NCBI GenBank assembly: GCA_964016885.1
Contig: OZ024763.1
Span: 2,728,001 to 2,792,000, forward strand
Length of the DNA stretch: 64,000 bases
Source of the DNA: Eledone cirrhosa
Lineage: Eukaryota
Direction: 5' to 3'
Shown piece after piece: positions 10,561 through 46,416 of this stretch. A model generated the notes under the pieces. It worked only from the letters and a program-made list of their open reading frames with translations, searched no databases and was not told the origin of the DNA. Position 1 is the first letter of the stretch, and each line of letters opens with the position of its first letter. A program made the position numbers and the translations under genes.

Positions 10561-10631
10561 TATTTTATTATGCGCATTTCAAAAACAAATATCATCATGG
10601 GATGATATCTGCGTTCTCATCAGATAAAATA
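10561..10631 (-). ncRNA. Minimal type I hammerhead ribozyme
   Basis: Minus strand: UAUUUUAU-CUGAUGA-16 bp stem II-GAAA-UGCGCA(palindrome)-UA-AUAAAAUA; stem I is 8 perfect bp. Confidence 0.85.
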
Positions 10632-12376
10632 GGGAGACATGATATGAAGCTTAAAAAACTATATATATATATATATATAAACTATAAAAACTATATATAT
10701 ATATATATATATATATATAAACTATAAAAACTATATATATATATATCCAGGGAGTGTAACTTGGAGTTACTGTAGGTTCACCCGGGTGAGCACTCGATGT
10801 TTAGGTTCACTTCAGTGTCGAGGTGTAGAGCTAGACAGAGTGTATTATAGTGAAATAAGATAACAAGGACGATTGGTTACACCTTCATTGCATTTATTGG
10901 TTGGTGACATGTGTTTCACCACTGATCAGCTCAAAGTTTGATCTGTATTGATCTGACCTGACTCTGTAATCTGCAGCTCGGCGGACCCCTTAAAATGCTA
11001 GTAGAAAAAATATATATATATATACAAATAATGAATCAATACATATCAAATATGTTTAGAATTTTGTGTTTCTCAATAAGCAAGCTCAATAGACTTTATC
11101 TAGAGCCATAATAACCAAATAAAGATATATATATATATATATATATATATATATATATATACACACACATATATGGCTCTGTCTCTCTCTCTTTCTCTCT
11201 CTCTCTCTATATATATATATATACTGTAGTAAAAGTTAGGTAGAAATATCCAAGAGTAAGAGCACTCAGTCCATAGGACGAGTTTAGTATAATTAGTTAC
11301 AATAGTGACATATACAGGTACTTAAGTTCCATTGGGTTCTGGACCCCAACTTAAGCACCTGTTTATGTCACTGTTGTAGCTAATTATATATATATATATA
11401 TATATATATATATATAATAAAGTATATATCCCTACACGCAAAAAGAGTCCAGGGACACATGTATTGTCCAACCATATGCCAATGTGGTTCAATGGCAGGT
11501 TAATAAATTAACGAGCCAGAACATATATAATCAAGGTTTAGCAAATAAGAAAAAATTTCAAAATAAATTTCAAAAATTCACTGTGAGTACAGTGAATTTT
11601 TGAAATTCATTTGAAACTTTTTCTTATTTGCTAAACCTTGATTATATATATATATATATATATATATATATATGCACACACACATATATAAGATCCTCTT
11701 CCTGCTATTTCACACGTTAAACTAATATATTCCTTCCATATACTGTACCATTTGTGTTGTTAGTTCTGTTTACCTTTAACACACACACACACACACACAC
11801 ACACACTATCAAAGCTTCTGACTTCATTGAAATACCTGCTCCTACTTAACTCTATCATGACCACGTTTCTAATGAAATACACTCTATTTTAATTAATTAA
11901 TGAAGAATTTTAAAGGATTTACTAAAATTATTGATTATTTCATTACTAAGATAGTAATTTGATGTAAGATCCTTATATAAAATTATGTTGGAAGATTTTA
12001 ATTTAAATATGAACCCTTTAAGATGTGTGGTTTTGAAGGGTTTACTAAAATTATTAATTATTTCATTACTAAGACAGTAATTTGATGTAAGATCCTTATA
12101 TAAAATTATGTAGGAAGATTTTAATTTAAATTAGAAACCCTTAAAATGGGTGAGGGCTCTTTGCCCTAGCGGACAGGGTGACCGTGGCTTTTGTGGGATC
12201 TCTACACGAGTGACCCTTAGAGTCTCCTCACCTTTGGGGAAGTTATGTTTGTTTTCTTTTAAGACCAAAAATTTGTTTAGGAGATGCTTAGGTGAGTGCT
12301 GCCACCTGATATTCCAGATTTGTTTTATTGTATACCTATAATATTAAAGTAGATATTTCCTTTGTCTTGCAACATT

Positions 12377-12580
12377 ATGCCCGTTGCCTGCAATCTATGC
12401 CCGTTGCCTGCAATCTATGCCCGTTGCCTGCAATCTATGCCCGTTGCCTGCAATCTATGCCCGTTGCCTGCAATCTATGCCTGTTGCCTGCAATCTATGC
12501 CCATTGCCTGCAATCTATGCCCATTGCCTGCAATCTATACCCATTGCCTGCAATCTATGCCTGTTGCCTGCAATCTATGC
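12377..12580. repeat. 20-bp tandem repeat (~10 copies)
   Basis: GCCCGTTGCCTGCAATCTAT. Confidence 0.95.
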
Positions 12581-12968
12581 TAAGAATCTAATGATGACAT
12601 AAAGCCCTACAGTTTTCTTGTCCATCTTCTACAACTGATTCCTGAAATCATCTGAATCCCGCCGAGGTCAACTTGGCCTTTCATCCTTACGGGGTCGATA
12701 AAATAAAGTACCAGTAATGTACTGGGTAATTGCTGGCCTTGTGCCAAAAGTAGAAACAAGTATTATTGTTATTATTATTGTTGAGTTCAAATCCCGCCGA
12801 GGTTAACTTTGCCTTTCATCCTTACGGGGTCTATAAAATAAAGTACCAGTAATACACTGGGGTCGATTTAATCAATTTTCCCCTTCCCCAAAATTGCTGG
12901 CCTTGTGCTTATATCAGAAACCATTATTAATATTATTATTATTATTATTATTACATATCAATGTAATG

Positions 12969-13290
12969 ACGGTGGATTGGCAGTATCGGTAGAGGGTCGG
13001 ACGCCATGCTTTGACGCATAGAGTTACGGCCCTTGCCATTCTGAGTTCAAATCCCGCCGAGGTTAACTTTGCCTTTCATCCTTACGGGGTCAATAAAATA
13101 AAGTACCAGTAATGCACTGGGGTAATTGCTGGCCTTGTGCTAAAAGTAGAAACAATTATTATTGTTGAGTTCAAATCCCGCCGAGGTTAACTTTGCCTTT
13201 CATCCTTACGGGGTCGATAAAATAAAGTACCAGTAATGCACTGGGGTAATTGCTGGCCTTGTGCCAAAAGTAGAAACAATTATTATTGTT
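12969..13290 (+). mobile_element. tRNA-headed SINE family A; other copies ~9362-9540(-), 12655-12950, 13510-13700(-), 27100-27285(-), 27787-27972(-), 29232-29420, 29912-30100(-), 42285-42705, 48105-48325, 57000-57185
   Basis: A/B-box-like head (TGGCAGTATCGG, GAGTTCAAATCCC), conserved core GCCTTTCATCCTTACGGGGTCGATAAAATAAAGTACCAG, (ATT)n tail. Confidence 0.85.
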
Positions 13291-13705
13291 ATATATCATG
13301 AAGCAGCAAATGTGGATGTCACCACTTAATAGTCTGGTATTCTTCAGTGTCTCATCTCTCTCAAGTAGGATGATGTGAAGTCATTTAAAGAATCTGTGTG
13401 AACTGAAATATTAGAAATTGCTGCTGTTAACCCTTTCCTTACCATATTCCTTGATTTCTACTGAAAGACACTACTGATAGGATTTCTGTTCATTTTGGAA
13501 ATAATTAAGTGATAATTGTTTCTACTTTAGGCACAAGGCCAGCAATTACCCAGTGCATTACTGGTACTTTATTTTATCGACCCCGTAAGGATGAAAGGCA
13601 AAGTCAACCTCGGCGGGATTTGAACTCAGATCGTAAAGGGACGTAACTATGCTGGAAAGCATGGCGTCCAACCCTCTACCGATACTGCCAATCCACCATA
13701 ATTAA

Positions 13706-14062
13706 GTGATAATGAAGGCTGGGGGTAGGCTTGGTGGTTCTTTGGTTGTTGTTGTTTTTGTGTGAGGTGGGTGTTTTGTGATAATGAAGGGTGGGGGTAG
13801 GCTTGGTGGTTCTTTGGTTGTTGTTTTTGTGTGGGGTGGGTGTTTTGTGATAATGAAGGGTGGGGGTAGGCTTGGTGGTTCTTTGGTTGTTGTTGTTTTT
13901 GTGTGGGGTGGGTGTTTTGTGATAATGAAGGGTGGGGTAGGCTTGGTGGTTCTTTGGTTGTTGTTGTTTTTGTGTGGGGTGGGTATTTTGTGATAATGAA
14001 GGGTGGGGTAGGCTTGGTGTTTCTTTGGTTGTTGTTGTTTTTGTGTGGGGTGGGTGTTTTGT
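13706..14062. repeat. ~70-bp G/T-rich tandem repeat (5 copies)
   Basis: GTGATAATGAAGGGTGGGGGTAGGCTTGG... periodicity. Confidence 0.9.
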
Positions 14063-44866: not shown

Positions 44867-44967
44867 GAACATTTCAACTATATAATAGCAGATGAGAATA
44901 TAGGACCAATTGTGATGTCAATAAAATTAGAAACTACAACACCTGAACAGATTTATGTTATATTAAG
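44867..44967 (+). CDS. Rap1GAP: Rap1GAP exon (EHFNYIIADENIGPIVMSIKLETTTPEQIYVILR)
   Basis: ttccag acceptor, AG|GTAACT donor, phase 0-2; continues FLGK-EHFNY motif. Confidence 0.93.
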
Positions 44968-45616
44968 GTAACTAGAACACTGTAGTTCTTGTTTGCTGTC
45001 ATCAGTGTCATCATCATCATCATCATCATCATCATCATCATCATCATCATCATCACTGTCATCATCATCATCATCTTCATCATTATCATTACTATTGTCA
45101 TTGGTGTCATTATCATCATCAACTTTTTCGTCGCCATCATCATCATCGTTTTTGTCATCATCGTCATCATTTCTCTCATCATTGTCATCACCTCCGTTAT
45201 CATCTTCACTTCATTTCTGTCATCATTATTTTCGTCATCGTTATCATCATTTTCGTCATCGTTATCATCATCATCATCATCATTTCTCTCATCATTGTCA
45301 TCACCATCATCATCATCACCGTCATCATCACCGTCATCATCACCATCGTCATCACCATAAATCTTATCATTGCCGTTACCCACATCACCATCACAATTGT
45401 CATCATCATCATCATCATCATCATCACCTTATCGTTGCCATTTCTGTCATCACCATCATCAGCCTTGTCATCAACCTTATCATCATTGTCATCACAACTA
45501 TCGTCATTGTGATTGTCATTAACATTGTCATCATCATCATCATTTAATTACTGATTATATTGTCTATTGATCTGTCTCACCTGTTGGTTGATTGGTATTT
45601 TATTGATCTTTTGTAG

Positions 45617-45692
45617 GACACGGCAGTTCACTAAACGAAAACTTGTCCAGTTCAATAAGAATGATATCCCTACCCCACAGAGTCTAGCCAGG
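45617..45692 (+). CDS. Rap1GAP: Rap1GAP exon (TRQFTKRKLVQFNKNDIPTPQSLAR)
   Basis: tgtag acceptor, AGG|GTAAAT donor, phase 2-0 matches neighbours. Confidence 0.88.
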
Positions 45693-46053
45693 GTAAATAT
45701 CATGTTGTTGTTGTTGTTGTTGTTGTTGTTGTTGTTGTTGTTGTTGTTGCCTTTAATCTGTACTGATAATAAATGTATATATATATATATAAATGAAGGA
45801 CTAGCATCCGAAACGTTAAGACCCTCTTCTTGCTATATCAAGCATTAACCTAATATATACCTTCCATATACTGTACCGATTGTGTTGTTATTTCTGTTTA
45901 CCCTTTACATATATATATATATATATATGTACATACATATATATATATATATATATATATATATATATATATATATATATATATATATATATATATATAT
46001 ATATATATATTAATTCAAAATATTAACAAAATAGATATTCTTGTGATCAAGTA

Positions 46054-46120
46054 TATTTTATTATACATATTTCAGAGGTACTGAGTTAAGTTCAACAGTA
46101 CGTCCTCATCAGATAAAATA
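46054..46120 (-). ncRNA. Minimal type I hammerhead ribozyme
   Basis: Minus: UAUUUUAU-CUGAUGA-GGACGUACUG..CAGUACCUCU-GAAA-UAUGUA-UA-AUAAAAUA. Confidence 0.85.
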
Positions 46121-46350
46121 AGATGATGCAATCTATTGTAAAACTCATTCTTTGATGTATTCATTGAATCTTGTTTAACTTTAAAAAAAAAAAAAATATC
46201 TATATATATATATATATATGTAGAAGTTCTATTTAAATTGTTGGGATACAACAAGCCAATATTTTATAACTGATATAAAGCACTCAACAAATAATTGGAG
46301 TAAAAATACAATATATTAACAAATGGAAATTATATTTATAAAACCATATT

Positions 46351-46416
46351 TATTTTATTATACATATTTCAAGCGCCACCAAGGTAAATTATGGTGCGCT
46401 TTCATCAGATAAAATA
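46351..46416 (-). ncRNA. Minimal type I hammerhead ribozyme
   Basis: Minus: UAUUUUAU-CUGAUGA-AAGCGCACCA..UGGUGGCGCUU-GAAA-UAUGUA-UA-AUAAAAUA. Confidence 0.85.

Follow-up and report, generated by a model that had tools for sequence, protein, structure and literature searches.

Penelope-like elements (PLEs) of the Hydra clade have been described by Craig et al. (2021; PMC8557442), together with their hammerhead ribozymes, their targeting of TA repeats and one octopus family. The signatures given there for the clade are a DKT motif, a CxCx5C linker, an endonuclease without CCHH but with CxxC and CxH around the E and the N, an RWK motif, and a length of generally <3 kb. The octopus family, Hydra-1_Obim of Octopus bimaculoides, is recorded in the supplement with 2,507 bp, a preference for (TA)n and a hammerhead. 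Ribozyme-less Naiads are given nearly 37,000 copies at most in the same paper. PAc, a Poseidon PLE of Anolis carolinensis, has been studied as a purified protein: it nicks AT-rich DNA on both strands and extends each of them, reverse transcription starts at two internal sites between which the tail lies, the main template is uncut RNA, and cleavage by the hammerhead requires the protein (Frangieh et al. 2024; PMC11167929). For cephalopods, two repeat papers (PMC13282606, PMC8967140) report Penelope expansions and recently active families, and the passages compared mention no ribozyme. Here, we analyzed a stretch of 64,000 nt from Eledone cirrhosa, called the window in the following (assembly GCA_964016885.1, contig OZ024763.1, positions 2,728,001 to 2,792,000 of the forward strand; positions below count from its first letter). 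A model that saw the sequence only had noticed six type I hammerhead motifs between 10561 and 46416. Our results indicate with high probability that these motifs are the 3’ ends, formed by pseudo long terminal repeats (pseudo-LTRs), of 5’-truncated Hydra-clade Penelope-like retrotransposons that were likely inserted at (TA)n via uncut RNA.

All six motifs are present, with core C3 starts at 10623-, 14706+, 21147-, 27375-, 46112- and 46408-. A descriptor that required a type I core, a stem I of at least 4 bp, a stem II and a stem III found 6 matches in the window, and the mean of 200 block dinucleotide shuffles was 0.03 (maximum 1); the motif is thus commoner than in shuffled sequence. Likewise, the full frame pattern had 3 window matches versus 0 in 100 shuffles. 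Four of the six descriptor matches were minus-strand copies that had already been noted, and two were additional copies (26937-, 7626-). The copy 14706+ failed because the base of its stem II is damaged, and 21147- failed because the 5’ strand of its stem I is gone. A covariance model of 15 family representatives recovered exactly the six noted motifs at E<=4e-6, followed by a next-best window match at E 0.35. This recovery was not independent, because the window copy at 46112 and several close relatives of the other window copies were among the representatives. In total, the window contains nine cores, and the sequence-only reading had overlooked the inverted pair 26937-/26945+, the core 7626-, and a half motif near 25852-25897+. 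An Rfam scan of the window yielded no hammerhead in the 150 of 247 matches that were listed, just simple-repeat microRNA noise. Three further candidates were rejected, namely a core at 743- without stem I and with a single genome copy, and a 126-bp array (2058-3026) and a 61-bp array (37290-38330) that contain CUGANGA and fail both the descriptor and the covariance model.

The assembly (3.0 Gb, 1,796 contigs) was searched with each window copy, and 40 of 46 to 3,094 candidates were scored per search. SINE motifs, together with the likeness of the ORFs to the published octopus element, suggest that the genome is that of an octopus. The six motifs belong to five families, A to E. Longer genomic copies continue upstream into a 3’ untranslated region (UTR) of 1.1-1.5 kb and then into a Penelope-type open reading frame (ORF). 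The search for linked ORFs with reverse transcriptase (RT) and GIY-YIG domains, which the sequence-only reading had suggested, was successful for all five families, so that its view of the motifs as relics of several ribozyme-bearing retroelement lineages was borne out. For family A (10561, 21085), the ORF was linked in the genomic loci L032, L034 and L215. In L215, a 775-codon open frame lies between two hammerheads (C1:4679838 and 4683778) that are 3,940 bp apart, and in L032 a pseudo-LTR, a tail, the ORF, a second pseudo-LTR, a second tail, and (TA)n with an inverted copy follow one another, the hammerheads being at 3739 and 7760. A broken full-length ORF (44% over 774 positions) is located upstream of family B (46351) in L243. 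The ORF is found upstream of family C (46054) in L239/L082, of family D (27313) in L240/L114 and also in L112, and of family E (14701) in L137/L238, with a Hydra endonuclease upstream in L137, L128 and L238. The ORF upstream of L149 was discarded, as it belongs to another element. Full units are about 3.9 kb long and have a hammerhead at each end.

The encoded proteins have an RT followed by a C-terminal GIY-YIG domain. The L215 protein contains YRDD and a GIY-YIG-type motif, and 19 full-length homologues were found at E<=5e-58. The DKG motif is replaced by DKT, as SDKT, in families A and B, and the CxCx5C linker is present in families A, B, C, D, E and H. The endonuclease lacks CCHH and has one C between GIY and YIG as well as CNLCLNE and CLH in L215, and the same is true for family E. 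The N-terminal RWK position is occupied by RLRWI in A, RLRWR in B, and RMRWK in an ORF tentatively linked to a further family, F. A tree built from 35 RT rows united families A, B, C, D and H in one clade (100/99), and the RTs of B, C, D and H are 52-62% identical to that of the L215 protein. All homologues in the tree had Hydra motifs except for a single DKG-type outgroup, whose branch is very long; families E and F, for which an RT was missing, are not included, and the row famC_L239_r represents another element, located on the opposite strand. Naiads and Neptunes likewise target TA, the former having an N-terminal endonuclease and the latter a CX2-5CxxC linker together with CCHH and DKG. 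A Naiad or Neptune identity was rejected in view of the C-terminal endonuclease, the CxCx5C linker and DKT, and the element at 7626 alone is of the Neptune type. Further Penelope traits are pseudo-LTRs that derive from partial tandems and carry hammerheads, 5’ truncation, inverted 5’ copies, and a tail at one end.

The frame of these hammerheads is very abundant in the genome. Its 20-nt 3’ half had 85,118 exact matches, compared with 13 for a reversed control. Its 5’ half was found 88,948 times with C as the fourth stem II base (control 22) and 4,760 times with another base (control 322), that is, the C was present in 88,948 of 93,708 sites. Altogether, the genome contains about 90,000 element ends, mostly in TA repeats. 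For closer analysis, the first 100 consecutive sites on contig C1 were used, which come from one 10-Mb stretch of below-average density; a core was present upstream in 92 of them, and 60 fall into 30 inverted (divergent) pairs. Because so many sites are paired, the number of insertions is perhaps 60,000 when this 10-Mb stretch is extrapolated. A metagenome scan with the full frame gave one match, without a pairing stem I, and none outside this genome. For a 3-kb family A stretch, no RNA data set was listed as containing it, a result that speaks neither for nor against expression. No earlier report of this copy number was found in the literature compared.

The hammerheads of the different families share one architecture. 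In all 15 representatives the core CUGANGA / GAAA / UA is invariant, 87% of the cells are paired, and 13 of 20 pairs have changes on both sides; the covariation was 0.52, compared with 0.10-0.18 for slid partners. Stem I comprises 8 bp and in most families, under constrained folding, continues beyond a bulge or internal loop, and the earlier label of a minimal hammerhead is doubtful. Stem III is a 6-nt palindrome (8 nt in family E) with the sequence UGCGCA in 34, UAUAUA in 29, UAUGUA in 23 and others in 6 of the 92 sampled sites with a core. By computation, it pairs in a dimer, with an energy of -10.5 kcal/mol for family A, and does not fold alone as a monomer. The core, stem I and the palindrome have been kept across families with RT identities of 52-62%, which argues that the fold is under selection.

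Conceivably, the motif arose by chance in AT-rich repeats and has no ribozyme fold, as the DNA is AT-rich and the listed Rfam matches lacked a hammerhead. However, 6 window matches versus 0.03 in shuffles and 85,118 genomic matches versus 13 for the control, together with the two-sided changes and the covariation described above, make this explanation extremely improbable. Chance is refuted as the origin of the modelled fold, and the catalytic activity is a prediction.

Stem II sequences are wholly different between families. Nevertheless, the sequence-only reading that they all base-pair was correct for most steps and wrong for the fourth, which is a conserved C.C or C.U mismatch. Step 4 was unpaired in 92 of 92 sampled sites (C.C 49, C.U 39, C.A 2, U.C 2; two of these sites have stem deletions), whereas steps 1-3, 5 and 6 were paired in 83-91. 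Similarly, step 4 is paired in none of the 15 representatives, whereas the other five steps are paired in 14-15 of them, with 3-8 two-sided changes each. Family E keeps C.C despite a different stem I. The C-G at step 4 of the 46351 copy is private to it, C.C being present in 32 of 34 members of its family. In addition, what had been taken for covariation in stem I at 27313 turned out to be a private one-sided change from the G.U of the family to G-C. Because the families are related, the mismatch points to one origin kept under selection and not to many origins. We predict that the unpaired C makes a tertiary or protein contact. The C.Y step does not occur in the 26 Hydra rows of File S2 of PMC8557442, and it was not found in the portions of PMC4209133 that were compared or in a targeted literature search, which did not cover Lunse et al. 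2017. Pyrimidine-pyrimidine mismatches at step 4 were also seen in other hammerhead families (L092:2438, L144:1206 and L046:2453, with U.C, U.U and C.C, respectively), one of which has a stable stem III.

Several observations weigh against the assignment to Hydra-clade elements with hammerheads. The RWK motif of family A reads RWI, and its units of 3.9-4.0 kb from hammerhead to hammerhead exceed the tendency of Hydra elements to be generally <3 kb. Pfam searches with the Hydra proteins gave no match, and in the L215 protein neither an RT nor a GIY-YIG domain was recognized. As the RT tree was built without a published Hydra sequence, the clade placement rests on motifs and on a match to Hydra-1_Obim by eye. 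With respect to the ribozyme, the dimer energies of the AU-rich palindromes are weak (-2.2 to -3.2 kcal/mol), and unconstrained folding yields the hammerhead shape for some window copies only.

The junctions of the insertions were analyzed at the 100 sampled sites. A (TA)4 or longer run was present within 170 nt of 96 of them, compared with 25% of random positions, in agreement with the earlier notion of a (TA)n preference. As a description of every window copy, insertion into (TA)n holds in part: 27313 has (TA)n at its 5’ side but a short interspersed element (SINE) at its 3’ side, and 14701 has (GA)n at the 5’ and (TA)n at the 3’ side. The 3’ junctions were distributed bimodally past the predicted AUA cut, with short ends of 30-70 nt (59 of 100) and long ends of 111-170 nt (37 of 100). 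A tail of about 90 nt with the word GAGURCU was present in 35 of the 37 long ends, and its sequence equals the start of the 5’ UTR in full units. The 30 inverted pairs consisted of 25 short+long combinations (one with a long end at 215 nt), 3 short+short combinations and 2 uncalled pairs, and long+long combinations did not occur. Compared with an even split, 25 short+long combinations among 28 pairs correspond to P ~1e-5. No earlier report of this asymmetry was found in the literature compared. None of 100 sites chosen by the 5’ half had its junction at the predicted cut (77 were exact, 19 read through it with small changes, and 4 were broken elsewhere). Also, 5’ ends did not pile up at the cut in 142 tail-bearing alignments, a set that is biased to loci with an intact motif. 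One tail of family F (60024) begins 3 nt before the predicted cut. The two arms of several inverted pairs have different bases at one and the same loop II position, which may be biased by the query.

A simple fold-back is a possible origin of the inverted arms, which share rare variants and have a median identity of 0.995 but differ in length by kilobases. That short ends pair so strictly with long ones suggests use of both start sites in a single event. The following scheme would be consistent with the insertion of Hydra-clade elements via uncut RNA. A partial tandem would be transcribed, and the GIY-YIG nuclease would nick (TA)n on both strands of the self-complementary repeat. The RT would then begin within the uncut RNA, at either of two sites that lie downstream of the hammerhead, and early 5’ truncation would leave mostly pseudo-LTR stubs. 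The palindromic stem III is predicted to pair between two hammerheads of one transcript, resulting in slow cleavage, and cleavage would occur only in the dimer or with the help of a protein. Target-primed reverse transcription on uncut or religated RNA is proposed because the junctions fit the biochemistry of PAc (PMC11167929). As the hammerhead is conserved, the fold should matter to master copies, and its likeliest role would be a dimer- or protein-assisted cleavage of the tandem transcript.

Alternatively, the hammerheads could cut all transcripts to units, and religated circles could be the template, which would explain why copies cross the cut site. Such circles have been proposed for PLEs (PMC4209133), copies longer than one unit exist (L032), and the conservation of core, stem I and palindrome in spite of the RT divergence would be expected. 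Yet these junctions are equally explained by tandem transcripts that stay uncut, the cut is not marked by any junction, and hammerhead mutants of the one PLE that was tested in vitro inserted normally (PMC11167929). A circular template, which differs from the preferred explanation in the template step only, is rather doubtful.

The short copies could also be non-autonomous elements of 130-300 nt, similar to retrozymes or SINEs, that have RNAs of their own and borrow the Hydra machinery. PLE derivatives of that kind have been described (bioRxiv 10.64898/2026.07.22.740005), and many copies share a 5’ junction at the same internal ATAT word (in family E, and at about -125 in family A), which would be in line with a fixed length. 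In contrast, the lengths form a continuum from 130 nt to full units, the junctions vary among copies, microhomology with the TA target would account for the junction hot spots, and at these sites no hammerhead is part of a tandem array. Consequently, this possibility is quite improbable. For an identity as non-LTR retrozymes, too, the absence of tandem arrays at the sites and the ORF upstream in every family were decisive. The earlier alternative "non-autonomous or truncated" can accordingly be narrowed to truncated copies of Hydra-clade elements.

The host gene encodes a GoLoco motif in an exon at 14950..15024 (+; PF02188, E 5e-7, above the cut-off) and a Rap_GAP domain in exons at 49816..49950 and 51256..51420 (both +; PF02145 over the cut-off). 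Further likely plus-strand exons are located at 15510-15650, 41711-41767, 56792-56878 and 57538-57773, and the gene spans >43 kb. The last two of these, which have no Pfam match alone, presumably encode the end of the Rap_GAP domain, and judging by the domain order, a single Rap1GAP gene probably contains both the GoLoco and the Rap_GAP exons. Of the six copies, four are located between host exons, as claimed in the sequence-only reading, whereas the two upstream of the GoLoco exon are probably intronic. The same reading had called the hammerheads dense. The 20-nt frame was matched 5 times in the window, compared with 1.8 times expected from the genome average (P ~0.04); the excess is mild, and the locus is not special. 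In principle, nine cores in 64 kb and this excess could mean that the copies are retained in the introns because they regulate the Rap1GAP transcript. However, seven of the nine cores run antisense to the gene (a 7:2 ratio that is not significant, P 0.18), and the sense copies are damaged (14706) or trapped in an inverted-repeat hairpin of -60 kcal/mol (26945). Moreover, the window copies bear private damage relative to their families, and the frame is found every 35 kb across the genome. Regulation is thus very improbable. As the frame occurs 85,118 times genome-wide, the cluster is not special to this gene; the gene is an incidental host, and the copies in the window are inert debris within Rap1GAP introns, mostly antisense.

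The individual copies are as follows. The pseudo-LTR fragment of family A at 10526..10659 (-) has a short 3’ end and lies between two (TA)n runs; its hammerhead spans 10561-10631, with the predicted cut after 10569. The family E fragment at 14640..14803 (+), in sense orientation to the host gene, contains a hammerhead at 14701-14758 with the 8-nt palindromic stem III, a predicted cut after 14753, and a private change that turns stem II step 3 into a C.A mismatch. The second family A copy (21039..21147, -, short 3’ end, hammerhead 21085-21147) had been called truncated. It has indeed lost the 5’ strand of stem I, but the whole core is retained, as the copy is 5’-truncated exactly at C3, the inversion junction. 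There it is joined to an inverted family A tail arm (21145..21223, +) that ends in (TA)n and is 99% identical to the tail of L032. A tail-only fragment of the B/H type without a hammerhead (20900..21025, +) shares its (TA)n run with this copy, and directly next to the family A copy lies a perfect inverted repeat at 21301-21500 with about 100 bp per arm, which is MITE-like (miniature inverted-repeat transposable element) or a fold-back.

A B/H-type fragment at 25852..26070 (+) consists of the 3’ half of a hammerhead, with GAAA changed to AAAA, and a long tail (model E 0.35). The inverted pair of family F at 26884..27088 has its short arm on the minus and its tail arm on the plus strand, with cores 26937- and 26945+; it is probably a Hydra element. 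The family F hammerhead has a 4-bp stem III and a U.U at the base of stem II, and is shaped like published Hydra hammerheads; a further family F sequence lies at 60024-60113. In L286 and L293, a Hydra ORF that closely resembles the one of family E lies near family F and may belong to it. The family D fragment at 27284..27457 (-; hammerhead 27313-27383, predicted cut after 27321) lacks 6 nt of stem II relative to its family and abuts the SINE with its 3’ end. The family C arm at 46011..46131 (-), with a hammerhead at 46054-46120, its predicted cut after 46062 and a short 3’ end, is followed by an inverted tail arm of the same family (46130..46186, +). The family B arm at 46220..46497 (-; long 3’ end with tail, hammerhead 46351-46416, predicted cut after 46359) is followed by the inverted end of a family B tail (46496..46530, +). 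These copies of families C and B are 296 nt apart in the same direction (46054-46416, minus) and both have UAUGUA as stem III; an antisense transcript across this region could form a mixed C/B hammerhead dimer.

Further repeats are present in the window. A second kind of PLE end with a hammerhead is located at 7430-7698 (-; core 7626-, an extra G after A9, a 4-nt stem III), and an inverted tail pair of the same element at 61693-61981. Longer copies of this element (L033) encode a C-terminal GIY-YIG domain with a CX4CxxC linker and CCHH and are thus Neptune-like. Elsewhere in the genome, PLE ends of several clades nest in one another’s (TA)n runs, head-to-head ends of other elements among them (L008, L012, L040, L084, L092). 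The earlier statement that the window contains no RT or GIY-YIG ORF is correct in so far as tblastn revealed no Penelope-type ORF remnant, but RT fragments of other long interspersed elements (LINEs) do occur. Such RTE-like 3’ fragments are found at 10124-10465, 43802-44197, 25974-26558, 44344-44895, 46708-46980 and 59808-59960. A sequence at 34049-34647 (-) is, judging by its motifs, presumably a broken mariner-like transposase. Long minisatellite arrays occupy 2058-3026, 3486-6045, 16381-19157, 30622-32220, 37290-38330 and 51408-55394, with periods of 126, 55, 79, 24, 61 and 44 or a multiple thereof, respectively.

While the window copies and the host gene themselves are ordinary, the system they belong to bears on questions that remain general for the field, namely the insertion mode of PLEs and the role of their hammerheads. 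The genome provides Hydra elements that are young and nearly intact, junctions by the tens of thousands, and six or more families whose divergence took place under a single structural constraint. On this basis one can test whether the C.Y step acts as a new module, enhancing the rate or binding a protein, in a hammerhead regarded as minimal, whether use of the two internal start sites is coordinated, and whether ribozyme-bearing PLEs can match the success of the ribozyme-less Naiads. Taken as a whole, the results would tentatively be read as follows. An octopus Hydra lineage may possess an undescribed hammerhead, whose long stem II would have at its centre an unpaired C that serves as a tertiary or protein-binding switch and persisted while all pairs next to it and half of the RT changed. 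Its about 90,000 ends might be among the largest expansions of ribozyme-bearing PLEs, and the inverted insertions might record a dimeric RT that primes two strands at two RNA sites per event. This joint reading is possible but less likely than its negation.

In comparison with known systems, the elements resemble the Hydra clade (PMC8557442) in the single ORF that encodes an RT plus a GIY-YIG domain at the C terminus, DKT, CxCx5C, the lack of CCHH and the presence of CxxC/CxH. They also share the hammerhead near the 3’ end, insertion at (TA)n, 5’ truncation, inverted copies and a tail at one end. In contrast, the unit is 3.9 kb here and 2.0-2.7 kb in the complete families of that paper, the tail has about 90 nt instead of 30-40, and there are about 90,000 ends. 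The hammerhead, which combines an 8-bp, U-rich stem I with a long stem II (C.Y at step 4) and a palindromic stem III of 6 nt, is unlike all 26 Hydra rows of File S2, Hydra-1_Obim included. It is similar to the minimal hammerheads of metazoan PLE pseudo-LTRs (Cervera and de la Pena 2014, PMC4209133; Lunse et al. 2017, as cited in the review PMC6765202), which are likewise of type I and have a tiny palindromic stem III and U/AU-rich flanks; in both cases there are many families per genome, mostly single truncated copies, and a predicted cleavage as dimers. Animal non-LTR retrozymes (Cervera and de la Pena 2020, PMC7229834) also contain high-copy, AT-rich, PLE-linked type I hammerheads, but they are tandem non-coding units of 170-400 nt, whereas the hammerheads described here are dispersed ends of protein-coding elements. 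With PAc (PMC11167929) the elements have in common two internal start sites bounding the tail, AT-rich targets, the involvement of both strands, and the absence of junctions at the cut. PAc belongs to a different clade, and its start site is equal on both strands, whereas the inverted arms nearly always differ here; also, the ORF of family A starts about 215 nt past the cut and not inside the hammerhead. In summary, the Hydra system itself is already known, and the additions from this genome are the copy number, the C.Y variant of the hammerhead, and the short/long asymmetry of the inverted insertions.

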